From Minisyncoccota bacterium (GTDB lineage: Bacteria > Patescibacteriota > Minisyncoccia > Phycocordibacterales > DATDSR01), in NCBI GenBank assembly GCA_036517655.1, contig DATDVE010000013.1, positions 28,364 through 92,363 on the forward strand: DNA of 64,000 bases, given 5' to 3'. The notes beneath the pieces were generated by a model that made no database searches, was not told the origin of the DNA, and worked only from the letters and a program-made list of their open reading frames with translations. This document shows, in pieces, positions 3,351 through 64,000 of this stretch (position 1 is its first letter; every line of letters begins with the position of its first letter). Both the position numbers and the translations under genes were made by a program.

Positions 3351-4285
3351 TGACAAACAAGCGAAGGACGAAACTTAGAATCGCTGTTTTATCCGGCGGA
3401 CCCGGAAGTGAGAGGGAGGTAAGTCTAGATTCTGGAAGGAATGTAGTTAGAGCGCTGGAAACTGGAGAAAACAAGTCTAGGTATATAGTAATACCTCTTA
3501 AGTTTCGCGATCCTCGATTACTTATGTCCAGACTCCAGCGCATCCAGCCTCATGTTGTTTTTCCAGTGTTGCACGGCGAGTTTGGCGAAGATGGCAAAGT
3601 TCAGGCTCTTCTGGAAGTATTCGGCAAGCCATATATCGGCTCGAGAGTGCTTGCCTCGGCGCTTGCGATGGATAAAGTGATTTCATCCAAACTTTTGCAC
3701 GCCGAGGGCGTGCGCGTTCCTAAGGAAATCACCCCGCGAAGCCAAGTAAATTTATTTGGCGGAGTGGGGTCATGTATTGTGAAGCCAAGGAACGGAGGCT
3801 CGAGCGTGGGGGTCTCGATAGTAAGAAATAAAAAAGACTTACAAAAAGCTATTAAGTTAGCCGAAAGAGAGGGCGAACCACTGGTTCAGGAATATCTATC
3901 GGGCAGAGAGTTCACTTGCGGGGTGCTCGAATTTGCGAAGGGCAAACCCAGCGCCCTGCCTGTGACAGAGATTATCCCCAAGAGTAAGTTCTTCGACTAC
4001 AAAGCCAAGTACATGAAGGGCGGTAGCGAAGAGATTACGCCGGCCGGTATATCGAGAAAGTTAACGGAAGAAATTCAACAGAGAGCTTTGCTTGCTCATA
4101 AAGTTTTGGCTTGCCGACATATATCTCGATCAGATTTTATATATTCGCGAGGCAAGCTCTATTATCTCGAGACCAACACCATGCCCGGCATGACGAGCAC
4201 GTCACTCATCCCGCAAGCCGTAAGAGCAGCCAAAATGACGATGCCCGAATTCTGCGATCGCTTAGTCCAAGCTACTCTTCAGTAA
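3350..4285 (+). CDS. ddl: D-alanine--D-alanine ligase (ATP-grasp)
   Basis: IAVLSGGPGSEREVSLDSG N-terminus plus ATP-grasp motifs. Start is probably the GTG at 3350 immediately after the upstream stop; the ORF-track start at 3287 overlaps the previous gene. Confidence 0.8.
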   Translation: MTNKRRTKLRIAVLSGGPGSEREVSLDSGRNVVRALETGENKSRYIVIPLKFRDPRLLMSRLQRIQPHVVFPVLHGEFGEDGKVQALLEVFGKPYIGSRVLASALAMDKVISSKLLHAEGVRVPKEITPRSQVNLFGGVGSCIVKPRNGGSSVGVSIVRNKKDLQKAIKLAEREGEPLVQEYLSGREFTCGVLEFAKGKPSALPVTEIIPKSKFFDYKAKYMKGGSEEITPAGISRKLTEEIQQRALLAHKVLACRHISRSDFIYSRGKLYYLETNTMPGMTSTSLIPQAVRAAKMTMPEFCDRLVQATLQ

Positions 4286-4356: not shown

Positions 4357-5343
4357 ATGAAATCCTTTGATTTTATCGCGGTTGGAGATATTGTGGCGGA
4401 TGCTTTTATACGCCTTTCTGTGGCTGAAGAGCATTTGAATAAGCATGCTCCGGAACTCTGCATGCCCTTTGCCACCAAGATTCCTTACGAATCTGTTGCG
4501 GAAATTTTGGCTGTGGGTAATTGCGCTAACGCGGCTGTGGCCGCCGCCCGCCTTGGCTTATCAAGTGCCCTCGTTTCTAATCAAGGCGACGACGAGATAG
4601 CCAAGAAGCAACGGGAAGTACTTGTGAGTGAGAAAGTGGGAGATGAGTTTGTGATTGATCACTCCGGAATGAAGAGTAATTATCACTACGTTTTGTGGTT
4701 CAAAGATGATCGCACTATCCTAGTCAAACACGAAGATTATCCGTATACGTTGCCGGATATAGGCGAGCCGAAGTGGCTATATATAACTTCTCTTGGTCCT
4801 AAATCTTTGGATTTTCATAAAATTCTTGAATCGTACATCGTGAATCATAATTCTATCCAGCTCGCTTTCCAGCCGGGCACGTTTCAGATCAAAATGAGCA
4901 AGGAGTTGATGGGGTTGTATAAACTTGCCAAAATTTTCTTCTGCAATATCGAAGAGGCCCAGTTAATCCTCAACACAAAAATTGAAGACCCAAAATTACT
5001 TATGCAAAAGTTGCACGAACTGGGGCCCGAGATAGTGTGTCTGACTGATGGACCCAATGGCGCATATGCCTTGGATGGGAAGACGGGCGAAGCTTGGACT
5101 ATAAGCACGTATCCAGATCCCAAGCCCCCCTTTGATCGCACGGGTGCGGGCGATGCGTTTGCCAGCACATTCACATGTGCAATTGCTCTAGGTAAATCTA
5201 TCCCCGAAGCCCTCGCCTGGGCGCCCATTAACTCAATGAATGTTGTGCAATATGTAGGAGCACGCGAAGGACTGCTGACACGAGAGAAACTTGAAGAGTA
5301 TCTGGCAAATGCCCCGAGTGCCTACAAGGCAGCTAAACTTTAA
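4357..5343 (+). CDS. PfkB-family carbohydrate/nucleoside kinase (ribokinase-like)
   Basis: C-terminal GAGDAFASTF anion-hole motif typical of PfkB kinases. 328 aa. Confidence 0.8.
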   Translation: MKSFDFIAVGDIVADAFIRLSVAEEHLNKHAPELCMPFATKIPYESVAEILAVGNCANAAVAAARLGLSSALVSNQGDDEIAKKQREVLVSEKVGDEFVIDHSGMKSNYHYVLWFKDDRTILVKHEDYPYTLPDIGEPKWLYITSLGPKSLDFHKILESYIVNHNSIQLAFQPGTFQIKMSKELMGLYKLAKIFFCNIEEAQLILNTKIEDPKLLMQKLHELGPEIVCLTDGPNGAYALDGKTGEAWTISTYPDPKPPFDRTGAGDAFASTFTCAIALGKSIPEALAWAPINSMNVVQYVGAREGLLTREKLEEYLANAPSAYKAAKL

Positions 5344-5360
5344 TTATCCACTTTGTAGAT

Positions 5361-5400
5361 CAAGTAAAATTAGTGAGCGATCGCTCACTAATTTTACTTG
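5361..5400. terminator. Perfect 40-bp palindrome (20+20) between convergent genes; bidirectional terminator or operator
   Basis: CAAGTAAAATTAGTGAGCGA|TCGCTCACTAATTTTACTTG centred on GCGATCGC. Confidence 0.5.
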
Positions 5401-18883: not shown

Positions 18884-19303
18884 ATGCAAATCACGCGCAG
18901 CCGATTCTTGGCGGCCCTCTCGGCCGCCGCCCTCACCTTCGTCATCGCCTGCAGCAGCGGTGGTGGTCCGACCAGCAAGGAGCCGCCCGACCCGCACGGT
19001 GGCTTCGTGGTCACCTCCACGAGCTTCTGCTACTGCCCGATGCCCGACGGGGCCAACGTGGCCCATGCGAGCCTCGCGTGGGACAAGGCCGATCGCGTCG
19101 ATCCCGACGCGTTCGCCCGGATCATCGGGTTCTACGAGGTCGCGCGCTTCTCCTGCGCCGTCACCCAGACCAGCGGGGCGTGTGGGAGCGTGGTGAACAT
19201 CGGCGATGCCGTCGCGACCCAATACGAGCTCGAGCTCGTTTCGCAGGGGCTGCACCTGTCCACCGGCGGATTCCCGCCCGCGGTCTGTAGTACCTGCCCC
19301 TAG
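18884..19303 (+). CDS. Putative lipoprotein (GC-rich island V, about 67% GC)
   Basis: AAAGGAG SD. Signal peptide with lipobox LTFVIAC. Followed by GGGGGCGAGG...CCTCGCCCCC terminator. Confidence 0.5.
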   Translation: MQITRSRFLAALSAAALTFVIACSSGGGPTSKEPPDPHGGFVVTSTSFCYCPMPDGANVAHASLAWDKADRVDPDAFARIIGFYEVARFSCAVTQTSGACGSVVNIGDAVATQYELELVSQGLHLSTGGFPPAVCSTCP

Positions 19304-19326
19304 GGGCAGGCCGAAGGTTGAAGGTC

Positions 19327-51634: not shown

Positions 51635-54600
51635 ATGAAGAGGCTCTTACTTTTTTCGGCCTTTACTGTCTTTGCTGTTGCTCTATTTGCTGGCAGAGCT
51701 TATGCCTTGCCCACCGCTTATCTTGGCTATGAAGGCCAGCTCACCAACTCCTCCGATACAGCCCTGACGGGGAGTTACGATATTACCTTTAAGCTTTATT
51801 ATGTTTTGTCTGGAGGCACAGCTATCTGGACAGAGACCCACACTGATCTATCTGTCTCAAGCGGTTATTTTGCCGCCACTTTAGGTTCCACAACGCCCTT
51901 TTCGAATATAGATTTCCGCAACCCTCTTTACCTTGGTATCACTGTCGAGTCTGATTCGGAAATGTCACCCAGACAATTGATCCATTCAAGTGCCTATAGT
52001 CAAACTGCTTCTACCACGCTCTCTGTTTACGCCACTACCACCCAACCCACCAGCGCCTCGGGTGGTAGCGTCTACTACAACGCCACTGACGGCCGGGCCT
52101 TCATATACGACGCGGTCAATTCTGCCTGGCGACGTCTTGGCCTTTGGGCCACCACTACCACCGGTGCCGCATATTATAACGACGGTCGTGTTGGTGTGGG
52201 CACAACTTCTCCGGGTGCGACTTTCTCGGTGCAAGGTGACGAACTAATCTCTGGCACAAGTACCGTTGGCAACCTAGTCGCCACAAGTTCACTAAAAATT
52301 CTTGGCACAGCTACGTCAACCGGAGCGAACGGTTGGGATATAACGGGCGGCTGCTTCGCAATAAACGGCGTCTGTATCACCGGTAGTTCCGCCACTGACA
52401 TCACTTTCTCCACAACCTCAGCCGACTACTGGAAGACCGTTAACAATTTCTTTTCCACTACTTCGGCTGATTATAATTTTGAGATAGCTGTCTCTGCCAC
52501 AAGCTCCTTGCCCAAACTTTCCACTCTTGCAGGCCTTGTTACCCTCGGCTCAAGTACAGCAACCACCACTGCCCTAGGTCACTTCGGCATCACGTCTAAT
52601 TTCTTGGTCAGTGGTTTCAGTTCCCTAACCAAATTTGGCGCCACAAACGGCACAAGTACTACCTTCCAAACCTCCAATCTGGGTGTGGGTACTGATTACC
52701 TGACCGACATCACCGGTACTGGTCTCTCGATCGTGGGTGGAGTCCTCAACTGCGCCACCGCTTCTCCCCTTACAATTGGCTGCCTCTCTACCACCGACTG
52801 GACTCTATTCAACAACAAAGTCTCCTCCACTTCTATAGATACTTCTGCTGAACTTGCTGCACTTCTTACTGACGAATCCGGCAGTGGCGCTTTTATCCTT
52901 GATTCTTCGAACCTTCCTTCTAAATGGGCCACCTCGACCGGTTCGACTACTGCGATTATCCCAAGTGGCGGTGATTCTATCAGTTTGGGTATTGGCACAA
53001 GCACTCCCGGCTCACGCCTGTCAGTGGGTGGAGTTGCTAACTTCAGTGCAGCAACTTCGTCATTTTATTCTAGTGGCGGTATTGATCTTGCAGCCGGCTG
53101 CTTCGCTATAAACGGCACTTGCCTCACTGCCGGTGGTATCACGGCGAGTCAGATTGCGCAGAGCAAGTGGGCTACGTCGACTACAGACTCGAGTGCTATC
53201 TACTCTGCCGAAGCAACCAAAGTTGGTATTGGTACTAGCTCGCCATACGCTGCTCTCTCCGTAGTGGGCGCATCGGGCGTAGTGGCTGATCGCTACACGG
53301 CCACAAGCACGGCTACGTCGTCAGACTTCCAGGGTTTGTTTGCCACCTTTGCCACTACCACTTCACTCTTTAGTACCACTGCTTCAACTACCAATTTGTA
53401 TGCTGATACCGCAAGTCTTGCTTCATCTACAATATATTCTCTCAACCTGCTCGGTAGTGGCACAACTACAGCTTTCAACGGCATCAATCTCACTAATGGC
53501 TGTTTCTCGATCAGGGGGACTTGCGTGGGTGGGTCCTCATCATCTGGCGCCCCTTCTAATTCCAAGTGGTCAACTTCAACAGACAACGTTTCGATTTATG
53601 TTAATGCTGCGACTAACGTGGGTATTGGCACAAGTTCGCCATATACTACCCTTGCCGTCTCCGGTTCTGTCATTCTTGATTCAAATTCGATTACGTTCGC
53701 ATCAAGCTCTGCTACGTCGCTCACCATCAACTACGGTGTTTCCTCAACGTCAACTATTCCGGTAACTAAGTGGAACGCTTGGTCTATTGCAACCTCCACT
53801 ACAGCTCTCTCTATTTTTAGCATTGATACTATAGGTCCGTATGCAAGTTCAAGCTTCGCTGGTAACTTCGTAATTGACGGCGGCAGATTAAGTCATGATG
53901 CAAGCACTGGCGAAACCTCGATCGTTAACTTGAGCACCGGACCGCTTAACTTTGAAGACGGGGCTGGCTGGGTCTCGTGGACTAATATTGCCGCCACGAG
54001 CTCAGCCACGGCTGATAACGACGTACAGGCCTACACTGCCCAACTGGGGAGCAACGACGTGCTCACTATCTACGGCCAAGCTGATGGCCCGAGTAACGGC
54101 GCCATTGATACCTTGCGCACAATTATTGGCACCACCACGGCCACACTCATGAGTTCGACTAACATTCCCTATAACTCTCTTATAGTCTCAAACTCTGCCT
54201 TGTGCGTGGGCAATACTTCCGCTGGTAACTGCACGGAATTTGCCATGAAGCGTGGTCAGATTGTGGGTTGGGGTGGAGGCATCTTTATGGCAAGCTCCAC
54301 GGGCATAGTAGGTGTCGGTACCACTTCTCCATACGCCACACTTTCTGTGGTGGGAGCATCGGGTGTTGTGGCAGATAAATACTTTGCCACATCTACGCGC
54401 GCCACAAGCACCTTCATGGGTGGTGTAGAGATCGGCACAAGTACGGCACCCAAAAATTGGAAGCTTACAGTCCAGGGCGGCGTGTGCATCACGAGTGGTA
54501 ATACTTGTCCCGACGTTGAATCTCCCGGCGGCCTGACTGTTGATACGGCTGATGCAACACCGGACGCAGATGACATAGGCGAAGTCTTCGACGTGGCCGA

Positions 54601-55363
54601 GCGCTACCTAGCCAGCGAAGAAGTGAGCGCTGGCGAAATAGTAGCTCTTGATCTTGAGGCAGAAAAGAGCGCAACAGTTAAGCGAGCGACCGAGGGAGAT
54701 GTGCTGATAGGCGTAATGTCCACTGCACCCGCGATTGCTTTCAACGGTCCAAGCTTGACCCTCGGTCCTGACAGAGAAGCGACAAGCACTAAACCCCTAG
54801 TTGCCCTAGTTGGTCGCGTGCCGGTCAAAGTAAACGTTGAGGGCGGCGAAATCAGAAAAGGTGACAGGATATCAGCGAGCAGTGAACTTGGGATAGGAAA
54901 AAAAGCTTTGCCAAGCGAGCAATCTGTCGGCTTTGCTCTTGAGAACTGGCCAAACGTAGACGATCCAGAGGATGACACGGTGCTTGTGTATGTTAAGTTA
55001 TCAGATACCGATACTCACAGAAACTCAATTGAAACTAGTGGAAACTCGTTGTCGGGAGATAAGGGAAGTAGATTAGATATGTCCGGTTGGGGCATAAACA
55101 GCGAAGGCGAACTGGTAGTTAAGAGAATAAGGGCCAAAGAATTGTGCCTGGGTAGTACATGTATTACAGAATCTGATTTGAAAGAGATCCTGAATAACCG
55201 ATCAACTGAAACTGATGGAAGTTTATTGCCGGAACCAGAAGTAACTCCCGAACCAGAGCCGGAAGTAATTCCTGAACCGGAGCAAATTGAACCGATTGAG
55301 GAAGTCGCATCTCTGCCTGAACCCGAAGAACTCACCGAGACAGTAGAGCCAATAGTAGAATAG
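51635..55363 (+). CDS. Giant secreted surface/fibre-like protein with internal repeats and acidic C-terminal PEPE repeats
   Basis: Signal peptide. 1242 aa rich in S/T/A/G. Near-duplicate modules GIGTSSPYAALSVVGASGVVADRYTATST / GVGTTSPYATLSVVGASGVVADKYFATST. C-terminus PEPEVTPEPEPEVIPEPEQIEPIEE. Confidence 0.65.
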   Translation: MKRLLLFSAFTVFAVALFAGRAYALPTAYLGYEGQLTNSSDTALTGSYDITFKLYYVLSGGTAIWTETHTDLSVSSGYFAATLGSTTPFSNIDFRNPLYLGITVESDSEMSPRQLIHSSAYSQTASTTLSVYATTTQPTSASGGSVYYNATDGRAFIYDAVNSAWRRLGLWATTTTGAAYYNDGRVGVGTTSPGATFSVQGDELISGTSTVGNLVATSSLKILGTATSTGANGWDITGGCFAINGVCITGSSATDITFSTTSADYWKTVNNFFSTTSADYNFEIAVSATSSLPKLSTLAGLVTLGSSTATTTALGHFGITSNFLVSGFSSLTKFGATNGTSTTFQTSNLGVGTDYLTDITGTGLSIVGGVLNCATASPLTIGCLSTTDWTLFNNKVSSTSIDTSAELAALLTDESGSGAFILDSSNLPSKWATSTGSTTAIIPSGGDSISLGIGTSTPGSRLSVGGVANFSAATSSFYSSGGIDLAAGCFAINGTCLTAGGITASQIAQSKWATSTTDSSAIYSAEATKVGIGTSSPYAALSVVGASGVVADRYTATSTATSSDFQGLFATFATTTSLFSTTASTTNLYADTASLASSTIYSLNLLGSGTTTAFNGINLTNGCFSIRGTCVGGSSSSGAPSNSKWSTSTDNVSIYVNAATNVGIGTSSPYTTLAVSGSVILDSNSITFASSSATSLTINYGVSSTSTIPVTKWNAWSIATSTTALSIFSIDTIGPYASSSFAGNFVIDGGRLSHDASTGETSIVNLSTGPLNFEDGAGWVSWTNIAATSSATADNDVQAYTAQLGSNDVLTIYGQADGPSNGAIDTLRTIIGTTTATLMSSTNIPYNSLIVSNSALCVGNTSAGNCTEFAMKRGQIVGWGGGIFMASSTGIVGVGTTSPYATLSVVGASGVVADKYFATSTRATSTFMGGVEIGTSTAPKNWKLTVQGGVCITSGNTCPDVESPGGLTVDTADATPDADDIGEVFDVAERYLASEEVSAGEIVALDLEAEKSATVKRATEGDVLIGVMSTAPAIAFNGPSLTLGPDREATSTKPLVALVGRVPVKVNVEGGEIRKGDRISASSELGIGKKALPSEQSVGFALENWPNVDDPEDDTVLVYVKLSDTDTHRNSIETSGNSLSGDKGSRLDMSGWGINSEGELVVKRIRAKELCLGSTCITESDLKEILNNRSTETDGSLLPEPEVTPEPEPEVIPEPEQIEPIEEVASLPEPEELTETVEPIVE

Positions 55364-55397
55364 TCCTCAGAAGAATGATAAACAAAGTATTTAATAA

Positions 55398-55427
55398 TTC
55401 GATTTCCCCCTTGCGGGGGAAATCGAA
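55398..55427 (+). terminator. Strong hairpin (13-bp stem)
   Basis: TTCGATTTCCCCC-TTGC-GGGGGAAATCGAA. Confidence 0.55.
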
Positions 55428-55617
55428 ATTCAATATCACTCACACGCCCTTGTTGATTGACTGTCTAATCCTAAAGGATTTTGACCAAGGCTTTTGTGGT
55501 GTGAGTGTCTGCGTGGACTGTCACGAAACGTGGCGATCCCATTTCGGCATGAGCCCTTGGCAGAACGGTTCCTCAATGCCTATCGGACCTACAATCATGT
55601 CCGAATTGTATTGATAC

Positions 55618-56181
55618 ATGATATCAAACCCAAAACCGATGTCAAACCCAACAATCAAAGATAAAAAACCAATCAGGCTTAGGGGTAAGACCATTGTCTA
55701 CGTTGATTGGGCAAATGTTTATGGCTGGAGCAAATCGCTTAAGAAAGAAATAAGTTTAGAAAAGTTATTCGCTTATTTCAGGATTTACGATGGGGTCGAG
55801 GATATTCGTCTCTATTTTGGCGAGGATGTTAATCCTAAGTCAAAAAAGTTTTTGGTTGATGCCAGAAATATCGGATACACTGTTGTTAGTAAAGAAGTAA
55901 AATATATTGCCTCCGGCAAGATCGAAGGACAGGTGATACATAGAAGAAAATGCGATTTTGACATGGAAGTTAGTATTGACGTCCACAAGGCTTTGGCCGG
56001 AGGAGTTGAGGGCTTCGTCTTTTTGACCGGGGACGGTGACTTCGCGCCTCTCTACGAGATGTTAATTGCCTTACGTAAACAAGTGGTGGTGATATATACT
56101 AAAGGTCATATTGGGAGAGAAGTGTGGGCTATTAGTAAGGGCATTTTTAAGGCGCAATTAAAGAATATAGTGGATCTATAA
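55618..56181 (+). CDS. NYN-domain (LabA/YacP-like PIN-fold) ribonuclease
   Basis: GKTIVYVDWANVYG...FDMEVSIDV...FLTGDGDFAPL typical NYN signature. Confidence 0.7.
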   Translation: MISNPKPMSNPTIKDKKPIRLRGKTIVYVDWANVYGWSKSLKKEISLEKLFAYFRIYDGVEDIRLYFGEDVNPKSKKFLVDARNIGYTVVSKEVKYIASGKIEGQVIHRRKCDFDMEVSIDVHKALAGGVEGFVFLTGDGDFAPLYEMLIALRKQVVVIYTKGHIGREVWAISKGIFKAQLKNIVDL

Positions 56182-56189
56182 AAGATCAT

Positions 56190-56209
56190 CCCCCCGATTT
56201 CTCGGGGGG
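56190..56209 (+). terminator. GC hairpin after NYN gene
   Basis: CCCCCCGA-TTTC-TCGGGGGG. Confidence 0.45.
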
Positions 56210-56259
56210 CGTGATTAGATAAAGCATATCATTCCCAAAACCCATGTCAAGCCCTAAAA

Positions 56260-56333
56260 ACACAGAAATATCAGGATACTACGATATCAAGATATTGAGA
56301 TACTAATAAAAACTGCGATACTTAGATACTATG
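56260..56333. repeat. Left arm of about 75-nt GATACT-rich inverted repeat flanking the four-helix-bundle gene
   Basis: GATACTACGATATCAAGATATTGAGATACTAATAAAAACTGCGATACTTAGATACT pairs with the reverse complement of 56721-56815. Confidence 0.6.
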
Positions 56334-56720
56334 GCGGAGAAGAAAAGATATATACAGCTAAAAGATCTAGAGGTTTATAAACACGCAAGAGAGCTCTCGA
56401 GACTTGGTTGGGAGATGTATAAATCCTTCGACTGGCAGACAAAGAAGGTGATCGGAGATCAATTTATCACAGCAACTGATTCTGTGGGAGCTAATATTGC
56501 AGAAGGCTACAGCCGTTACCATTATCTAGACAGAATAAAGTTTTTCTACAATTCCCGAGGCTCGCTTGCCGAGGCGGCTGACCACTGGTTGGCCATTCTC
56601 CATGAACGAGGTAAAATAGATGATAAGCAACACGAAGCATTTGCTTTGATTGCCAGCAGGGTGTCGTTAAAACTCCAGAACTTCATCAATGCAATATATA
56701 AAACCAAAAACAGCGAGTAA
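56331..56720 (+). CDS. Four-helix-bundle protein (family usually found in 23S rRNA intervening sequences)
   Basis: EVYKHARELSRLGWEMYKSF...IGDQFITATDSVGANIAEGYSRYHY...YNSRGSLAEAADHWLAILHERG matches the TIGR02436-type four-helix-bundle family. Confidence 0.75.
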   Translation: MAEKKRYIQLKDLEVYKHARELSRLGWEMYKSFDWQTKKVIGDQFITATDSVGANIAEGYSRYHYLDRIKFFYNSRGSLAEAADHWLAILHERGKIDDKQHEAFALIASRVSLKLQNFINAIYKTKNSE

Positions 56721-58929
56721 AGTATCTAAGTATCGTAGTATCCCAGTATCTATTAGTATCGGTTTTATTTTCCTAGTATCTATAAGTATCTTGATATCAA
56801 CTAATATCGCCTCCATCGTCTCCGCTTTCACTATTCAAAAGACCCTGCCCACTCAACCCGACCTGCAAAACGGCCTAGTGGGCCACTGGACATTTGATGG
56901 CAAGGATATTTCCGGTACCAGCGCCACAGACCGAAGCGGCAACAACAACACCGGCACCCTCACCAACGGCCCACTTGCCACTGTCGGCAAAATCGGCCAG
57001 GCCCTGAACTTTGATGGGAGTGATGATTATGTAAGTATTGCGGACAATAATTCTCTTGACCTTACATCTGCGGTCACTATTAGCTTATGGTTTAAAGCTG
57101 ATGGGTGGACTGCCGCATACCAAGGGCTCGTTGCGAAAAGAATTGGCAATTCGTCCAATTACGGTTTGAATGTAAGTAGCACAGGAAGTGCATTTCAGTG
57201 GTTCTTCCATGACGGGGATTATCAGATAGTTGATATAAATGCAAGTACCGTTTCTACAGGCCAGTGGCATCATTTTGTGGGGACTTTTAGTGATACTGGC
57301 GATGTAGTGGGGTCTATCTATATTGATGGAACTTTGAAAAAGACAGAAACATTTACGGCTAGAAATCTTGTCGCAAATACCAATACTCTTCGTATCGGTG
57401 AGAGTAATAATCCGGCAAGTGGCCCCGAACATTTCAATGGCTCCGTCGACGACGTGCGCGTGTACAGCCGGGCGCTTAGTGCGGCCGAGATTACTAAACT
57501 GTACAAACTCGGGGCCACCAGTCACGTCAATGTCACCCTCCCCACCCAACCCGACCTGCAATCTGGTCTGGTCGGCCACTGGACGTTTGACGGCAAAGAT
57601 ATGGGCCCGAATGTACTTGATAAATCAGGCAACGCAAACCACGGCAATGCTGTTTACGGCACCACTGGCAATACGAGCACGACTACAGTCGCGGGCCGGA
57701 TCGGCCAGGCACTTGTCTTTGATGGATTTCCTGTGCTCAATGGATTAGCTGACAGCGTTCTTCTCCCTGGTGTTTCAGTGACGGGGACCAGCCATAGCGT
57801 TTCCATGTGGCTCAATGTTACCGGGCTTCCAGCCGACACATACGGTACCCTTTTCAGTGATGCGTTTGGGAACACTGGACTTTATTATTATAACGATGGG
57901 GCGACAGAAAAGATTACTTATTTCTATAGTCTTGCCGATAATTTCGCCTCAACTACAATAAAAGTTGATAACAAGTGGCACCATTTTGCAGCTGTTTCCG
58001 GTACTGGCGGAGTTACTTTCTATGTCGACGGAGTTAGAAGTGGCGCAGTGTTTGGTCAAGTCCCGGATTATTCGGCAACAAGAATCGGAGGTGACATTTT
58101 TAACGATGAGTTTAAGGGTGCCCTCGACGACATCCGTCTCTACAATCGTCCACTTAGCGCGGCAGAAGTAACTAAACTATACAAACTCGGGGCCACCAGC
58201 CACGTCAACACAACCCTCCGCACCCAACCCGATCTGCAAAATGGCCTAGTGGGCCACTGGACATTCGACGGAAAGGACGTGGGGCCGAATGTACTTGATA
58301 AATCAGGCAACGCAAACCACGGCAATGCTGTTTACGGCACCACTGGCAATACGAGCACGACTACTGTGCCAGGCCGCATCGGCCAAGCTTTGAGCTTTGA
58401 TGGCGTGAACGACTATGTTCTGGTAAATAATAGTGCAAGTCTCACTATGACCACTGGTGATATAAGTATGGGAGGGTGGTTATATCGAAATGCGTCATTC
58501 TCGGTCAATCCCAATATCTTCCACAAAAAGAGTGGTACAAATGATATTAATAGTGGATACGCTATGGGAGTATTAAGAAGCACCCATTCATTGGGTGGCC
58601 ACAAGCCAGCTTTCAGTTTCGCCGATGGTACAAATGCCGCTTATTTCTACCCCACATCAATAACATACGCAACACCTTTCAGAAAGTGGGTCCATGCTTT
58701 CGTAGTTTTCAATTCTACTACCGATACGGCGCAAATATATATCAACGGACAACCAGTCGATACAACTAACGTTTATGCCAGCGCGATTGGTTCAGTAACT
58801 AACACCACAGCGCCAAATATAGGCAGGATATCCACATCCTACTTTGGTGGAAATATTGATGATTATCGCGTCTACAGCCGGGCGCTTAGCGCGGGGGAGG
58901 TGAGGAAATTGTATGAGATGGGAAGATAG
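56689..58929 (+). CDS. Secreted protein with three tandem LamG/concanavalin-A-like lectin domains
   Basis: Each about 228-aa repeat begins TQPDLQ.GLVGHWTFDGKD and ends DD.R.Y.RALSA.E..KLY.LG. Start uncertain: the N-terminal hydrophobic segment is encoded by the right inverted repeat and overlaps the four-helix-bundle gene. Confidence 0.65.
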   Translation: MQYIKPKTASKVSKYRSIPVSISIGFIFLVSISILISTNIASIVSAFTIQKTLPTQPDLQNGLVGHWTFDGKDISGTSATDRSGNNNTGTLTNGPLATVGKIGQALNFDGSDDYVSIADNNSLDLTSAVTISLWFKADGWTAAYQGLVAKRIGNSSNYGLNVSSTGSAFQWFFHDGDYQIVDINASTVSTGQWHHFVGTFSDTGDVVGSIYIDGTLKKTETFTARNLVANTNTLRIGESNNPASGPEHFNGSVDDVRVYSRALSAAEITKLYKLGATSHVNVTLPTQPDLQSGLVGHWTFDGKDMGPNVLDKSGNANHGNAVYGTTGNTSTTTVAGRIGQALVFDGFPVLNGLADSVLLPGVSVTGTSHSVSMWLNVTGLPADTYGTLFSDAFGNTGLYYYNDGATEKITYFYSLADNFASTTIKVDNKWHHFAAVSGTGGVTFYVDGVRSGAVFGQVPDYSATRIGGDIFNDEFKGALDDIRLYNRPLSAAEVTKLYKLGATSHVNTTLRTQPDLQNGLVGHWTFDGKDVGPNVLDKSGNANHGNAVYGTTGNTSTTTVPGRIGQALSFDGVNDYVLVNNSASLTMTTGDISMGGWLYRNASFSVNPNIFHKKSGTNDINSGYAMGVLRSTHSLGGHKPAFSFADGTNAAYFYPTSITYATPFRKWVHAFVVFNSTTDTAQIYINGQPVDTTNVYASAIGSVTNTTAPNIGRISTSYFGGNIDDYRVYSRALSAGEVRKLYEMGR
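56721..56815. repeat. Right arm of GATACT-rich inverted repeat
   Basis: AGTATCTAAGTATCGTAGTATCCCAGTATCTATTAGTATCGG...CTAGTATCTATAAGTATCTTGATATC. Confidence 0.6.
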
Positions 58930-59019
58930 GGCGAAATTGGCCATGCTTTTTCATCAAGCCCTGCATAGGTTTATCACATGTCTTGACTAGTTTAAAGTTG
59001 TAGCTTAAACTGGCCATAT

Positions 59020-60246
59020 ATGAAGGGATACATACATAGATACTTGGAATCGGCTGTTTTGAGGATTTCGAAGACATTTCCGGTTCTTTTATTGACCGGA
59101 CCTCGGCAGGTGGGGAAGACTACGCTTCTGCAGTATCTTATTGCGCAAGAAGGGAAAAAGCGCGGGTATGTCAGTTTGGATGATTTTAAAACGCGCACAC
59201 TGGCCAATGAGGATCCGGCGCTGTTTCTCCAGCAAAATCCTTCTCCCTTGCTCATTGATGAAGTTCAATATGCTCCCAAGCTTTTTACCTACATTAAGAT
59301 TGCTGTGGATCGAGATCGCAACAATGGCATGTATTGGCTTACCGGATCGCAGCAATTCCACATGATGAAAGGAGTATCAGAATCACTCGCTGGGCGCGTG
59401 GGCATATTGTCGCTCCTGGGCCTCTCGCAGGCAGAAATTGATGGTATGCCGCAAAAAGAGGAGCCGTGGATGCCAGGCGCCGCTGCCAAAGCAGAGGGTA
59501 CGAGCACCACAGCCATATTCAGTAAAATTATCAAAGGATCGTTTCCCGCGCTTTTTCAGGATCAAGCTCCCAAACTTGACGAATACTATGGCGCTTATCT
59601 CCGTACCTATGTTGATCGCGATGTGCGGGACATCATCAAAGTTACCTCTCTTGCCTCATTTGAAAAATTTGTTTCCGTTTGCGCGGCAAGGACAGCATCA
59701 CTTTTGAATTATTCTGATCTGGCCCGGGATGCCGATATCAGTGTTCCTACCGCAAAAGAGTGGATGAGCATTCTCGAGGCCGGACACCATGTGTTTCTAC
59801 TCCGTCCCTATTATCGTAATCTCACCAAGCGTCTCATCAAGGCCCCAAAGCTTTATTTTCTTGATACCGGACTTGCGGCGTATCTTACAGGCTGGCGCGA
59901 TCCTGGAACGGCACTTCGCGGGGCCTATGCCGGCCAGTTGTTTGAAACATTGATCATCAGTGAGATTATCAAAAGCTATGTGCATCGTGGCAAGGATCCG
60001 CGTTTCTTTTCATATTTTCGAACCAAAGAGCAAGAGGAGGTCGACTTTCTCATTGATCAAAATGGAATACTCACGCCTGTTGAGGTTAAACTTGGAATGC
60101 AAGTGAACAAGGCTGATCTCCGCGGTGTTGAAGCGCTTAAAGCTACCAAGACAAAGGTCGGGCTTGGCGCAGTCATTGCGCCCGTGGAGGCGCCGTATCA
60201 TCTAAACCAAGATGTTATCGTTGAGCCGCCAAGCGCGATTTCATGA
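59020..60246 (+). CDS. AAA+ ATPase with DUF4143 domain
   Basis: Walker A LLLTGPRQVGKTT. 408 aa. Arrangement typical of the DUF4143 ATP-binding protein family. Confidence 0.75.
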   Translation: MKGYIHRYLESAVLRISKTFPVLLLTGPRQVGKTTLLQYLIAQEGKKRGYVSLDDFKTRTLANEDPALFLQQNPSPLLIDEVQYAPKLFTYIKIAVDRDRNNGMYWLTGSQQFHMMKGVSESLAGRVGILSLLGLSQAEIDGMPQKEEPWMPGAAAKAEGTSTTAIFSKIIKGSFPALFQDQAPKLDEYYGAYLRTYVDRDVRDIIKVTSLASFEKFVSVCAARTASLLNYSDLARDADISVPTAKEWMSILEAGHHVFLLRPYYRNLTKRLIKAPKLYFLDTGLAAYLTGWRDPGTALRGAYAGQLFETLIISEIIKSYVHRGKDPRFFSYFRTKEQEEVDFLIDQNGILTPVEVKLGMQVNKADLRGVEALKATKTKVGLGAVIAPVEAPYHLNQDVIVEPPSAIS

Positions 60247-60316
60247 CGACGTGCGCATCTACAACCGGGCGTTGAGTGCGGGGGAGGTATTAAAATTGTA
60301 CGAGATGGGGAGGTAA
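60244..60316 (+). pseudogene. Orphan duplicate of the LamG-protein 3' end (encodes DDVRIYNRALSAGEVLKLYEMGR*)
   Basis: About 78% nt identity to 58853-58929. Begins exactly at the ATPase stop codon. Confidence 0.6.
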
Positions 60317-60344
60317 TTTGACCCTATTTCTTTAATAATATACA

Positions 60345-60956
60345 ATGGAAGGGTGGAGATATCACCTTTCCATCAGACACATGTCCACAGATAATCTCAT
60401 TGCCAAGCTATATCAGTCCCCCAAAACAATCCTAACCACAAAGGATATTGCTTTAACTTGGGGGGAAACTAACCCCATCAATCTTTTCTCAAAGATCAAA
60501 TATTATGCCAAACAAGGATCGCTGATCCGCCTATCTAGGGGGATTTTTGCCAAAGATAAAAATTATAATCCTAAAGAACTAGCCACGAGTATTTATACTC
60601 CATCATACATCAGTTTTGAAACAGTCCTAAGGGAAGCCGGTATAATTTTCCAGTACCACGATTCGATCTTTGTGGCCGGTCCCTATCCCACGATAAAAAA
60701 GTTTGGAGATCAAACGATTACATTTAGGAAATTGAAAGATAGCCTTCTCTATAATGCCAAGGGTGTTAAAAGTGAAAAGAATTACAGCATCGCCACACCG
60801 GAACGAGCCCTCCTCGATACCATGTATTTATCTCCTAAATTTTATTTTGACAATCTGCGACCTATTAACTGGGAGATATGCTTCGAACTTGCAAAAATTT
60901 ATGGCAACAAGCAGTTAATTAAACGAGTCGCAGAATACCAAAAGCATGCTCAATAA
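60345..60956 (+). CDS. AbiEi-family antitoxin/transcriptional regulator (type IV TA)
   Basis: N-terminal wHTH-like region (...GSLIRLSRGIF...) and position immediately upstream of, and overlapping, the AbiEii gene. Confidence 0.65.
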   Translation: MEGWRYHLSIRHMSTDNLIAKLYQSPKTILTTKDIALTWGETNPINLFSKIKYYAKQGSLIRLSRGIFAKDKNYNPKELATSIYTPSYISFETVLREAGIIFQYHDSIFVAGPYPTIKKFGDQTITFRKLKDSLLYNAKGVKSEKNYSIATPERALLDTMYLSPKFYFDNLRPINWEICFELAKIYGNKQLIKRVAEYQKHAQ

Positions 60957-61659
60957 AGAGAAACATCAACTAATCATGGGGCAGATTCTGCGAGATATTT
61001 ACTCGGATACTTCTATCTCATCTTTGCTCGGATTCAAGGGCGGTTCCTGCGCCTACTTTTTCTATGGTCTATCAAGATTTTCTGTCGATCTTGATTTCGA
61101 CCTATTTTCTAGCGACGAAGCTACTCAAAAATTGGTGTATGAAAAAATTGGTAGCATGTTGGGGAGATACGGAGAAATCAAGAATAATTATATAAAACGC
61201 AACACTATTTTTTTCCTGCTCTCATACGGAGACGCAGAGCACAATGTCAAAATTGAAGTTAATGTGAGAATCTTGATGCCCGATCTCAAAGAGCATTACA
61301 AAGTGGAAGAATATCTTGGAATTTCTATGCTTGTGGGCAAAAAGGATTATCTCTTCGCAAGTAAGCTCGCGGCACTCACTGACCGAAGATTGCTTGCTAT
61401 GCGCGATATTTACGATATTTGGTTCTTTGCCAAAAGCAACTGGGATATCGATGCCGAGGTACTCAAGACGAGAACCGGCAAAACTATCAAAGAACGCATG
61501 GCTGATTGCATTGCAGTCATTGAAACGGTTAAAGACAATGAAATTTTGCGAGGACTGGCCGAATTGTTATCGGGCGAAAAAGAAAAGGCGTGGGTCAAAG
61601 TTCACTTAAGAAAAGAGGTTATCTTCCTGCTCAAGAACTACCAGTCGGTATTAAAATAA
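60946..61659 (+). CDS. AbiEii/AbiGii-family nucleotidyltransferase toxin (DUF1814)
   Basis: GFKGGSCAYFFYGLSRFSVDLDFD matches the GG(T/S)...RFSEDLDF signature of AbiEii. Confidence 0.7.
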   Translation: MLNKEKHQLIMGQILRDIYSDTSISSLLGFKGGSCAYFFYGLSRFSVDLDFDLFSSDEATQKLVYEKIGSMLGRYGEIKNNYIKRNTIFFLLSYGDAEHNVKIEVNVRILMPDLKEHYKVEEYLGISMLVGKKDYLFASKLAALTDRRLLAMRDIYDIWFFAKSNWDIDAEVLKTRTGKTIKERMADCIAVIETVKDNEILRGLAELLSGEKEKAWVKVHLRKEVIFLLKNYQSVLK

Positions 61660-61735
61660 AACTTATGATAAAATTACGAGGCAGAACTGCTGCGAACATG
61701 CCTAAAGTATATTGATGGCACTGAAAATTGAATAA

Positions 61736-63289
61736 ATGGAACATTTATTGAAAATCATAACCCTCATATTTGTTTTTTACGTAGCCTTGCCAACTTACGC
61801 CGCTAATCTCGAGAGTACCAATTACAAAATCTATGGCGGTCAAGTTAACGAGATCATCGGAGAACCGGCTTCTACTAACTATAATCTCAATTCTGGTGGC
61901 AATCCGATAGAAGGGGATACTTCAAGCGCTAATTATAAACTACAATCCGGTTCGGCACTTTCTTTTCCCGGCGCAAGCAGTAGTCCCAGCCCATCTCCCA
62001 GCCCCAGCCCTTCACTCAGCTCCGGTTCCGGTGCTAACGGACCGCCTGATATGCCTAATCTCTTTGTTGTCTCGCCAGGCATTCCTTTACTATCGCCTTA
62101 TCTCCCCCCGCTTCACGAACTTCTGCCAAATCTGCCTGACGACTTCCTCACCCCGCCCACTATTCCGGACTATTCTATCGTAACCGAGGCGGATCTCGCC
62201 GAGTTTGCCAATTTGCCTAGTAGTCTGCGCTTACTCACTCGCAAGTTTCCGAGCCTGGCTGGTACTTTTAGGTCTATCGGGGTCAAAGACTTTTCTGACT
62301 TGGATAGACTTTCGCGAGGTACATTTATTTTGCCCGGTTTTGACGAGCTCGATAAGATTCCCACCGAAGTTGTCTTTGCCCGCTCCGGTGATAAGCTGAT
62401 AAATTTCAACACCCAACTAAAGATTGCCAAATCCGGCCTGGTTACCCAGCTCATCCACGTAATCTCTGGTCACCCGGTTAATCTGGCTATCAGGCCAAAC
62501 GGACAAGTGAAGGAGATTACTGGATACCTTGTCCTGCGAGAGAGCAACTTCTCGCAAGACGCCGATGATAGCGAGAATATTTCTATCGATGTTTCAAGTC
62601 TAACTGCGTCACTCATTCTCGCACAAGCGGGGCAAGTGAAAGTTGACACCGGTCCTAAAAAAATCGAGCTAGAACCGGATCCTAATGTGAATGTGAGTGA
62701 TGAGTTCTTGCTAAATAAATTTACATATTCTGATCCGGACGGGGATGGCATATTTACCACTACTATTACCGCGCCATTTGTAGCCTCAACTTATGAAGTT
62801 ATCACTAATATTACTTACGCTGATGGTAGTACCGGTTCATCTGGCATTAGGCTGATCCTAGTAGTTGACCCAGAAGGTTACGTCTATACAGTTAAGGCCG
62901 GCCTTGAGGCGCGCGTGCCGGATGCTGTTGTCACTATCTTCTGGCGTGATCCGCAGGCAAATGATGGGAAAGGGGAATACGTGCCATGGCCGGCTCGCGA
63001 GTACAGCCAGCGCAATCCGCAGGTTACAGAGAAGGCCGGCGAGTATTCATTCCTAGTGCCGCCTGGCGAATACTACTTAACAGTTGCATCTGCTAAGTAT
63101 CACCCGTACACAAGCGAGCCCTTTATTGTCACAGAAGGCTCGGGTGTGCACATGAATATCGAACTTGCGCCGGTCAGATCCTTTGGTCAAATTCTGCTCT
63201 GGATTGGCTTCTTTATTCTATTCCTGCTACTTCTGCTTATTCTCTTGTTCTTGATAAAGCGCAGGAAGCAAAATAATTATTATCAATAG
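61736..63289 (+). CDS. Secreted protein with SP-repeat linker, carboxypeptidase-regulatory-like domain and C-terminal TM anchor
   Basis: Signal peptide. SPSPSPSPSPS linker. YVYTVKAG...YYLTVASAKYHP beta-sandwich. C-terminal ILLWIGFFILFLLLLLILLFLIKRRKQ. Confidence 0.55.
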   Translation: MEHLLKIITLIFVFYVALPTYAANLESTNYKIYGGQVNEIIGEPASTNYNLNSGGNPIEGDTSSANYKLQSGSALSFPGASSSPSPSPSPSPSLSSGSGANGPPDMPNLFVVSPGIPLLSPYLPPLHELLPNLPDDFLTPPTIPDYSIVTEADLAEFANLPSSLRLLTRKFPSLAGTFRSIGVKDFSDLDRLSRGTFILPGFDELDKIPTEVVFARSGDKLINFNTQLKIAKSGLVTQLIHVISGHPVNLAIRPNGQVKEITGYLVLRESNFSQDADDSENISIDVSSLTASLILAQAGQVKVDTGPKKIELEPDPNVNVSDEFLLNKFTYSDPDGDGIFTTTITAPFVASTYEVITNITYADGSTGSSGIRLILVVDPEGYVYTVKAGLEARVPDAVVTIFWRDPQANDGKGEYVPWPAREYSQRNPQVTEKAGEYSFLVPPGEYYLTVASAKYHPYTSEPFIVTEGSGVHMNIELAPVRSFGQILLWIGFFILFLLLLLILLFLIKRRKQNNYYQ

Positions 63290-63326
63290 TTTATTAGTAA
63301 TTTTTAGTCACAATAATTTAAAAGCC

Positions 63327-63725
63327 ATGGAGTCAAACACAAATACAACTAGTCCACATTCTAAGTTCGTCCACTCTGTTCTCGCTGTTGTCGTGCTTGC
63401 GCTCCTGGCTCTCTCTTCCGCCCTTATCTTCCAGTACAAAGATCTGAAAGAGCAGCTATCTGGCACAAACGGGACAGAGTATGCTCCCGAGAACACCCGA
63501 GTCCTGCTCTTTCTGGATGATTTCGTAAACCTTGTGCTTGGTTCAACTACTGAAATCAGCCTTGAAGACAGGTTACGCTTAGAGAATGAAGTACGAGCCT
63601 TGGGGGATAAAGAAATCCTAGCCACTTGGCAGGCCTTCACCGAGGCCCCTGACGATATGGTGGCTCAAGGACAGGTCATCAAGCTCCTGCGCCTTCTGGT
63701 GGCCAAGCTTAAAGAAGCCCAATAG
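63327..63725 (+). CDS. Small membrane-anchored hypothetical protein
   Basis: One TM (VLAVVVLALLALSSALIF) plus a helical C-terminal region. Confidence 0.4.
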   Translation: MESNTNTTSPHSKFVHSVLAVVVLALLALSSALIFQYKDLKEQLSGTNGTEYAPENTRVLLFLDDFVNLVLGSTTEISLEDRLRLENEVRALGDKEILATWQAFTEAPDDMVAQGQVIKLLRLLVAKLKEAQ

Positions 63726-63887
63726 TGGTGCGCGCACCGCGTAGCCCCGCTCGTAGCGGGGCGGAGTGGTGTGGATATCAAAATAGGGCCTAGATCATAA
63801 GGGGAGTATAATTTCCCATAGGTAATTAGCCGTGGCGGGAGGTCGAATACCAGCCTTGGCGCATGCTTTATTAATCAAATTATACTT

Positions 63888-64000
63888 ATGCAAAACGAAC
63901 TAGTAGACACATTGAGCACTTCGCTCAATAACGTCTGGAGCGGGGTAATCGCATTCCTGCCGAAGTTTATCATTGCTCTCATTATCTTTATTATCGGCTG
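63888..64000 (+). CDS. Membrane protein, 3' truncated by window edge
   Basis: ATG at 63888 after a TATACT-like box. MQNELVDTLSTSLNNVWSGVIAFLPKFIIALIIFIIG. Confidence 0.3.
   Translation, partial: MQNELVDTLSTSLNNVWSGVIAFLPKFIIALIIFIIG

Follow-up and report, generated by a model that had tools for sequence, protein, structure and literature searches.

The candidate defence family PDC-S01 (COG1373) combines an ATPase with a fused PD-(D/E)XK-type domain (PMC3424549, PMC12988326). It is the fourth most common defence candidate and has been transferred repeatedly across domains, with no experimental test (PMC12988326). DUF4143 itself is listed as a PD-(D/E)XK family of function not known (PMC3424549), and COG1373 is among the near-identical genes common to different gut genera (PMC10782964). 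The literature that we searched gives no account of the anatomy of PDC-S01 cassettes (palindromic operator, sharp edges) or of their insertion into gene termini. Here we analyze one such gene, an AAA_14-DUF4143 ATPase gene in a stretch of 64,000 nucleotides (nt) from contig DATDVE010000013.1 of the Minisyncoccota bacterium assembly GCA_036517655.1. We call this whole stretch the window, and positions are counted along it. The ATPase gene stands between a gene for a LamG-repeat surface protein and an AbiEi/AbiEii pair, and the terminal 72-nt block of the LamG gene occurs twice, once at the end of the live gene and once, apparently orphaned, at the end of the ATPase gene. Coordinates are collected in Table 1.

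The locus belongs to a known kind, in which a cassette with a defence-type gene sits in the terminus of another gene and leaves a pseudogene scar. The ATPase has the same two Pfam domains as PDC-S01, matches it at full length, and adjoins another defence module (AbiE). As in the islands that integrate at the 3′ ends of genes, a live end lies upstream and an orphaned, diverged end downstream, direct repeats mark both borders, and the downstream fragment appears to be half element-derived and half target-derived. Unlike those islands, the insert has neither an integrase nor a second gene and measures only 1.3 kb, the repeats have only short identical cores, and the live LamG end is strain-variable, with a spacer of 52 nt between it and the cassette. 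Free-standing homing endonuclease genes (intronless homing) are alike in that a single nuclease-family gene is lodged in conserved sequence, with flanking homology that could template repair, and in the spread between related genomes. But the protein here is a 408-amino-acid (aa) AAA+ protein with a PD-(D/E)XK-like domain that matches none of the LAGLIDADG, GIY-YIG, HNH or known PD-(D/E)XK homing enzymes, and no empty allele such as a homing gene has was found among the 18 AbiEi contigs. A further likeness is to defence hot spots, in which cassettes are exchanged by flanking homology: two ATPase alleles (ATPase1, that of the window, and ATPase2) alternate in the slot between LamG and AbiE, the neighbors are NYN and AbiE genes, and the breakpoints lie at conserved sequence. 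The difference is that the homology lies in a block of 72 nt that encodes part of a repeat protein, instead of in core housekeeping genes, and that this block would also drive surface-protein domain shuffling. The locus is worth recording for this use of a repeat-protein coding block as portable homology, and for the compact operator-plus-ORF (open reading frame) anatomy of PDC-S01 cassettes.

A sequence-only reading of the window had noticed that the end of the LamG gene (58853-58929) recurs at 60244-60316 with about 78% nucleotide identity. The repeat is real, but in register it comprises 58858-58929 and 60245-60316, 72 nt each including the stop codon, and the identity is slightly lower (54/72 nt, 75%). 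Most differences are synonymous, as had been said: 13 codons differ between the copies, nine of them synonymously (the stop included) and four non-synonymously, and the peptides agree in 19 of 23 residues plus the stop. Outside the repeat, in the same register, identity falls to background (17/60 nt upstream, 12/60 nt downstream), so that the similarity ends sharply on both sides.

What is the right copy? When its peptide is compared by tblastn with the whole 64-kb window, the only matches are the three LamG domain ends and the fragment itself, with an E-value of 1e-10 for the live LamG terminus and of about 1e-8 for the internal domain ends. Since the next best match has an E-value of 0.09, the likeness to LamG is far beyond chance. 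The fragment fits the C-terminal strand/helix motif of PF13385 domains, and specifically its gene-terminal variant: the peptide ends in ..EMGR*, unlike the inter-domain linker (..KLGATSHVN) that ends LamG domains 1 and 2, and the terminal form ..LY(E/Q)MGR* is common to the fragment, to the LamG protein of the window (LamG-746), to a 712-aa LamG protein described below (LamG-712) and to the LamG end of contig L111. The first base of the fragment is the second of the ATPase stop codon (TGA, 60244-60246), and the two reading frames differ; that of the fragment has a stop 12 codons upstream, without a plausible start. The objection raised by the sequence-only reading, that the fragment could be the start of an unrecognised gene, fails on this evidence, because the fragment ends in a stop and has no start; it is also contradicted by a second copy, described below, in which a 20-nt insert breaks the frame. 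Judged by its sequence, then, 60245-60316 is the orphaned 3′ terminus of a different LamG allele and not a gene, and it should be flagged in annotation as a LamG pseudogene remnant. No second ATPase gene or second LamG gene was found within the 64-kb window.

Strain variants define the extent of the cassette. We located the exact ATPase and LamG proteins on several metagenome contigs (labelled L), and three arrangements can be told apart. The window-type arrangement is found in L003, L112 and L113. In L002, L006, L111 and L116, the sequence is 99.6-100% identical to window 58982-64000, while left of 58982 nothing can be aligned: the left side holds unrelated LamG genes whose stop codon adjoins cTTGACTAG. 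In L116, the LamG gene encodes 712 aa with three domains and its stop codon lies directly against cTTGACTAG; this contig also differs in its allele of the large surface protein and lacks the NYN and IVP genes. The 52-nt spacer of the window is missing where such other LamG alleles adjoin the cassette directly. The third arrangement, the L004/L005 type (five contigs), equals the window up to 59019 and continues into a different AAA_14 ATPase (MITKDDFKERYIQ...), under a promoter with the same -35 and -10 as in the window but another spacer. All five contigs end about 190 nt into this second allele, ATPase2, which for that reason is probably also a repeat shared between genomes; a search with its 64-aa N-terminus from L004 found nothing. 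Because the variants differ sharply either left of 58982 or right of 59019, the stretch 58982-60246 behaves as a module, with different LamG genes in front of it or a different ATPase behind the same LamG gene.

The same ATPase is also present in a second context. In twelve contigs (L108 and eleven more), the 3′ end of the ATPase gene lies upstream of mreB, 96.6-100% identical to the window. These contigs begin about 280 nt inside the ATPase 3′ end, where identity is 96.6%, and 100% in L130. They continue through the same TGA/GACGAC junction into DDVRVYNRALSA, then a 20-nt palindrome CCTGCCTGCCGGTAGGCAGG, then GEVRKLYNLGK*, and then mreB, frr and rseP. The two contexts are alike as far as 60280, halfway through the fragment: 33/36 nt agree in its 5′ half but only 24/36 in its 3′ half. 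Each 3′ half nevertheless makes a well-formed LamG terminus, its stop at the same place, and the mreB-side fragment is split by the 20-nt insert, which breaks its frame. The insert, a GC-rich palindrome (L108 323-342; also in L122-L131), sits exactly where the fragment copies stop matching. A similar hairpin lies upstream of mreB in the cassette-less contig L132 (6945-6962), and one comparable intergenic hairpin occurs in the window (19293-19310). The 20-nt palindrome may act as a terminator or be a small mobile palindrome.

The GC content is 43.7% in the mreB context, against 48.3% for the window and 48.5% for the ATPase gene. The relative L132 (48.1% GC), which comes from the same sample as the window, has a large surface protein, the similar hairpin and mreB, without cassette, fragment or LamG gene there. 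That all mreB-side contigs are broken inside the ATPase is as expected of a repeat that co-assembled genomes have in common. The observations are read most economically as a recent transfer: the cassette and the first half of the block would have passed from one Paceibacterota species to another, again into a LamG terminus. A Logan contig with the ATPase measures 1299 nt, which is the exact span of 58982-60280, but this coincidence is only suggestive.

The sequence-only reading had proposed that a cassette of about 1.3 kb was inserted or recombined into a LamG terminus. In essence this is supported: the edges are sharp (58982 on the left, the ATPase stop and 60280 on the right), unrelated sequence lies beyond them in close strains, and the identical ATPase with its stop/GACGAC junction recurs upstream of mreB. 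The comparison with relatives lacking the ATPase, which that reading had suggested, gave no empty site among the contigs examined. For this reason we infer the insertion and, with no recombinase found either, its mechanism as well.

The LamG blocks themselves behave as recombination breakpoints. The LamG gene of L111 and L006 equals that of L116 minus domain 3, joined inside the terminal block. It carries GTTGAGTGCG, found elsewhere only in the fragment, and its terminus is a mosaic of the 5′ part of domain 2, the hexamer AGTGCG (otherwise in the fragment only) and the 3′ half of the L116 terminus. In L126, the mreB-side fragment differs by 5 nt and still reads the LamG-like DDIRIY, a change that is what gene conversion from a live LamG end would give. 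The mosaic end of L111/L006 and the L126 variant argue that the fragment is not mere debris but is still involved in exchange between LamG blocks. No stretch of nucleotides in the LamG repeats is better conserved than the terminal block, which acts as portable homology. In Patescibacteria, it can thus be regarded as a recombination handle that shuffles domains, swaps alleles and carries a defence cassette between genomes.

We lean, if only modestly, towards the following explanation: the cassette lies in the conserved terminal block of a LamG gene, the fragment is the displaced terminus, and recombination through the block moves both the cassette and the LamG alleles. The operator and the ATPase ORF would have come to lie inside the terminal block, displacing the original terminus and leaving a live LamG terminus before the cassette and a dead one after it. 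With part of the block on each side, about 36 + 36 nt of homology would allow the cassette to be copied into other LamG termini. Recombination within the block could have carried the cassette and the first 36 nt into a second LamG terminus in another genome; in the same manner, it could swap whole LamG alleles upstream of the cassette and add or remove LamG domains. The route would be a homologous or homology-facilitated one of the host, not catalyzed by the cassette protein, though the nuclease might assist. Seen directly are the edges of the cassette, its two contexts, the strain variants, the two-part fragment, the mosaic LamG ends and, in distant family members, homology confined to the cassette. 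This explanation makes predictions. The left side of the mreB-side copy should be a LamG gene ending in ..GGGGAGGTTAACAAGTTGTATCAGATGGGGAGATAG, followed by CTTGACTAG, and an empty site should be a LamG terminus with the 3′ half GGGGAGGTATTAAAATTGTACGAGATGGGGAGGTAA followed by TTTGACCCTATTTC (abiEi side), or with GGGGAAGTGAGGAAACTCTATAATCTGGGGAAGTAA (mreB side).

Several points weigh against this explanation. No empty site was found among the 18 AbiEi contigs or the 12 mreB contigs. Perfect identity between LamG blocks extends over no more than about 11-21 nt, a short stretch for recombination of the RecA type. The mreB context is assigned to another species by its GC content and by a co-occurring relative and not from a binned genome, and the left side of the second ATPase copy is unseen, every mreB-side contig breaking inside the ATPase. 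Moreover, the 20-nt palindrome at the homology break could alone have limited gene conversion between copies of one older duplication. Finally, regular-expression scans found no LamG motif near about 100 distant homologues of the ATPase, so the association with LamG is specific to this lineage and not a trait of the family.

Both Pfam matches of the ATPase-nuclease exceed the gathering scores (PF13173, E = 6e-29, residues 21-140; PF13635, E = 2.2e-45, residues 199-358), and the PADLOC match to PDC-S01 (E = 1.8e-108) covers residues 1-406. An alignment of 37 sequences has invariant Walker A (G27, G32, K33, T34, T35) and Walker B (D80, E81) residues and an equally invariant PD-(D/E)XK-type motif, D342..E355-x-K357; in the window, the motifs read GPRQVGKTT, LIDEVQ and EEVDF...VEVK. 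By the same alignment, the protein ends at the native C-terminus of the family (P403, I407), and therefore nothing has been trimmed. The folds nearest to its AlphaFold2 model (predicted local distance difference test, pLDDT, 90.5) are, by Foldseek, the archaeal AAA+ proteins 2fna/2qen, RuvB, ORC/Cdc6 and STAND NTPases; no recombinase, transposase or homing-endonuclease fold is among the top matches, and a sequence search of solved structures gave P-loop noise only. Between the repeats there is a single ORF, and no recombinase gene was found inside the element by Pfam, NCBIfam or PADLOC. Defence may be the function of the ATPase, which is a candidate on this count.

Upstream of the gene, a promoter scan reports a sigma-70-like site, and the palindrome that it overlaps has a fold z of -2.27. 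The ATPase ATG follows 8 nt past the -10, without a Shine-Dalgarno sequence. A long palindrome overlapping a -10-like box 5-25 nt upstream of the start is present at most AAA_14-DUF4143 genes across many phyla (58983-59015 in the window; L007-L139), for example ATCGTCTATAATGCAATCCGATTGCATTATAGACGA in L016. Upstream palindromes scoring at least 8 are found at 32% of 93 loci, compared with 2.8% of 290 control windows (p 8e-17). This palindrome, which delimits the cassette on the left, is probably an operator for autoregulation. A search of 55000-62000 with Rfam found nothing. The locus offers a base-resolved example of how a PDC-S01 gene is packaged and moved: one ORF with its palindromic operator, bounded by the -35 box and the stop codon.

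Elsewhere, the homologues of the ATPase are distant, at 35-62% identity and in many phyla. Among the matches listed in a profile scan of genome contigs identity does not exceed 51%, and a metagenome scan with the single ATPase protein gave one close relative (L108) and otherwise about 50% identity. The family occurs on 369 of 72,556 plasmid records and is rare in phages; scans of viral contigs for the cassette promoter and junction gave no match. In these distant members too, homology can be restricted to the cassette. Agrobacterium pAt and Rhizobium pAtAB2-73d have in common a cassette of 1361 bp (L140 2838-4198, L141 2501-3861), 92.6% identical between unrelated flanks, which begins just ahead of a palindrome lying 79 nt before the start and ends 25 nt past the stop; in pAt, the final base of the cassette falls in the stop codon of the convergent pyc gene. 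L090 and L091 have 1378 bp in common, cassette only, and the sequence shared by L099 and L101, and by L088 and L105, ends at the stop codon or 1 nt past it. Across the family, direct repeats flank the gene at ten of 73 loci, compared with two of 128 mock positions (Fisher p 0.00085). This behavior of the family agrees with the explanation that we lean towards, as do the inserts of L069 and L084 described below.

Could the protein itself drive the movement? The AAA+/PD-(D/E)XK protein might cleave or remodel conserved gene termini, the double-strand break being repaired, as in homing, from a copy with the cassette, or it might catalyze the integration of a circle of operator and ORF; the flanking LamG blocks would then be attL/attR-like products. 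We consider this unlikely, although a fair number of observations agree with it. The cassette is a single ORF with sharp edges in several lineages, the D..ExK nuclease motif is invariant, and TTGAC recurs at junctions. A fragment that is half element and half target is what a crossover or synthesis-dependent repair inside the block would produce, and the LamG end of L111 resembles the predicted excision hybrid. Other integrase-less inserts also lie at gene termini with imperfect direct repeats. In L069, a Ruminococcus metagenome-assembled genome, a 1.7-kb single-gene DUF4143 ATPase insert follows a tRNA-Pro and its terminator (3561-3684), and on its far side (5330-5399) there is a second copy of the last 23 nt of the tRNA and the terminator (70 nt, 88.6%), the same signature as in gene-3′-end islands. 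In L084, a 36-nt hairpin 64 nt upstream of the gene recurs at its 3′ side, where it overlaps the ATPase stop codon by 2 nt, as does the fragment in the window. Further termini are those of the Agrobacterium cassette, exactly at the pyc stop codon, and of L137, at a truncated radC.

On the other hand, the protein has no likeness to a recombinase, transposase or homing-endonuclease fold, its nearest relatives being AAA+, STAND and ORC proteins. The distance of the edges from the ORF varies (-38, -77, -79 and -311 on the left, 0 to +112 on the right), TTGAC is merely the -35 consensus, and 63 of 73 loci are without a flanking repeat. A tRNA lies within 450 nt at eight loci, and a duplicated tRNA end brackets the ATPase only in L069. 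An active or excisable element could also leave a circle or excision junction, expected to read ATPase stop-GACGAC...GAGTGCG|GGGGAGGTTAAC...TAG-CTTGACTAG; no circle junction was found, no empty site was seen, and there was no unoccupied site in the flank contexts of the Agrobacterium and Rhizobium plasmids. The broader proposal, that AAA_14-DUF4143 (PDC-S01) genes are autonomous single-gene mobile elements which insert an operator-ORF unit at gene termini without a classical recombinase, is in our view doubtful. So is its more specific form, that the ATPase-nuclease recognizes its own palindrome and targets LamG ends, tRNA 3′ ends, terminator hairpins and stop codons, the fragment being an attR-like scar. 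If it were true that the protein drives the movement, we would be looking at a new class of single-gene mobile element. If not, this is an ordinary, but instructive, homology-facilitated insertion that left a pseudogene fragment.

Three observations on these loci remain. In L069, a GTGCCAACTG(G/A)A motif is present near both inner ends, and there is no integrase. In L137, an 89-aa ORF for the N-terminal part of radC (UPF0758_N, 3700-4001) has its TGA stop within the TTGACT box of the adjacent ATPase cassette, and the 182 nt available downstream do not contain the remainder of radC. The repeat of L032 was rejected as a tRNA-end bracket, as it excludes the gene.

Alternatively, the fragment might be the relic of a deletion. 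In this case, the ATPase would once have stood between two LamG genes in tandem, or within a longer locus, and the second LamG gene would have been deleted but for its last 24 codons, without any insertion of the ATPase here. In favor of this, LamG genes occur in several copies and readily recombine, each flanking block has the terminal form that a separate gene would give it, and no empty site was found. But one end point of the deletion would have to lie precisely at the ATPase stop and the other precisely at the codon with which the conserved block begins, and the identical junction would have to recur by mreB with a different 3′ half and different downstream genes, all while the ATPase keeps its native C-terminus (P403, I407) with nothing trimmed. 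A simple deletion relic is therefore unlikely. We have also considered that the window type arose by deletion between two promoters in a tandem LamG-ATPase array; all contigs relevant to that question end within an ATPase.

The sequence-only reading had spoken of a duplicated fragment and an att-like core, and direct repeats immediately on either side of a single-gene insert do call to mind a target-site duplication, in which the insertion itself would have duplicated the 72 nt. We give this very little chance. The repeats differ at 18/72 positions (25%), against 0-3% among cassette copies across contexts, and the left repeat lies 52 nt off the cassette in the window and has a different sequence in strains with an identical cassette; this divergence is what points to the terminus of another LamG allele. 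Even less probable is that the fragment is functional in itself (as a small ORF, a frameshift extension of the ATPase or a terminator) and only incidentally like LamG: a 34-codon ORF starting with ATG can be drawn over 60212-60316, and a weak hairpin with a U-rich tract lies at 60301-60340, but the mreB-side copy is frame-broken by its 20-nt insert, the fold z is only -1.58, Rfam finds nothing, and the peptide matches the LamG terminus with E ~1e-10. Stop-codon readthrough, +1 frameshifting and genetic code 25 were tried and rejected, as none brings the fragment into a sensible frame; the UCA-UGA-C context at the ATPase stop is not known as a +1 frameshift site.

Table 1. Features of the LamG-ATPase-AbiE locus; positions are those of the window unless a contig is named.
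Feature	Position	Strand	Details
NYN-domain gene and 23S_rRNA_IVP four-helix-bundle gene, upstream of LamG on the strain-variable side	55618..56720	+	missing in L116
LamG-repeat surface protein gene, 746 aa, N-terminal membrane anchor and three Laminin_G_3 domains	56689..58929	+	Pfam PF13385, E 2.8e-70, 3 stretches
Left repeat copy, conserved terminal block of the live LamG gene	58858..58929	+	encodes DDYRVYSRALSAGEVRKLYEMGR*
Spacer from LamG stop to cassette, 52 nt	58930..58981	.	present with LamG-746 (window and L004/L005 types)
Cassette left edge, promoter-like TTGACT-17-TAAACT (58983-59011) over palindrome	58982..59019	+	GACTAGTTTAAAG / CTTAAACTGGCC
AAA_14 + DUF4143 ATPase-nuclease gene, 408 aa	59020..60246	+	PADLOC candidate defence gene PDC-S01
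Alternative ATPase allele (ATPase2)	L004 8330-8521, L005 5543-5734 (= window 59020 onward)		MITKDDFKERYIQHQ...
Right repeat copy, read as an orphaned LamG terminus	60245..60316	+	encodes DDVRIYNRALSAGEVLKLYEMGR*
5′ half of the right copy, travels with the ATPase	60245..60280	+	DDVRIYNRALSA; 33/36 vs mreB-side copy, 100% in L130
3′ half of the right copy, particular to the window context	60281..60316	+	GEVLKLYEMGR*; only 24/36 vs mreB-side copy
Promoter-like TTGACC-17-TACAAT	60318..60346	+	directly after the fragment stop codon, before abiEi; promoter scan
AbiEi/AbiEii type IV toxin-antitoxin (abortive infection) pair	60345..61659	+	PADLOC 3.7e-57 and 6.2e-64

On the left, the strain-variable block extends over 51635-58929 (compared with L116 1-4114) and contains the large surface protein, NYN, 23S_rRNA_IVP and LamG genes. 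The listed start of the LamG ORF lies 32 nt inside the preceding 23S_rRNA_IVP ORF (56331-56720), and the true start may lie downstream. The LamG protein also has a weak NCBIfam match to TafC, a fimbrial protein family.

The AbiE pair, with the AbiEi antitoxin gene first and then the gene for the nucleotidyltransferase AbiEii, which matches Pfam PF08843 (3.6e-15), is the conserved right flank of the cassette: the ATPase lies upstream of AbiEi in 18/18 contigs carrying the window-type AbiEi. There are two candidate starts for abiEi, at 60345 and 60381. Because the promoter-like -10 (ending at 60346) overlaps the first ATG, abiEi may really start at the second (MSTDNLIAKLY...). In two longer contigs of the same population, L112 (16394-16975) and L117 (8958-9539), a LAGLIDADG_1 homing-endonuclease gene follows the AbiE pair at a distance of about 7 kb, past the end of the window.

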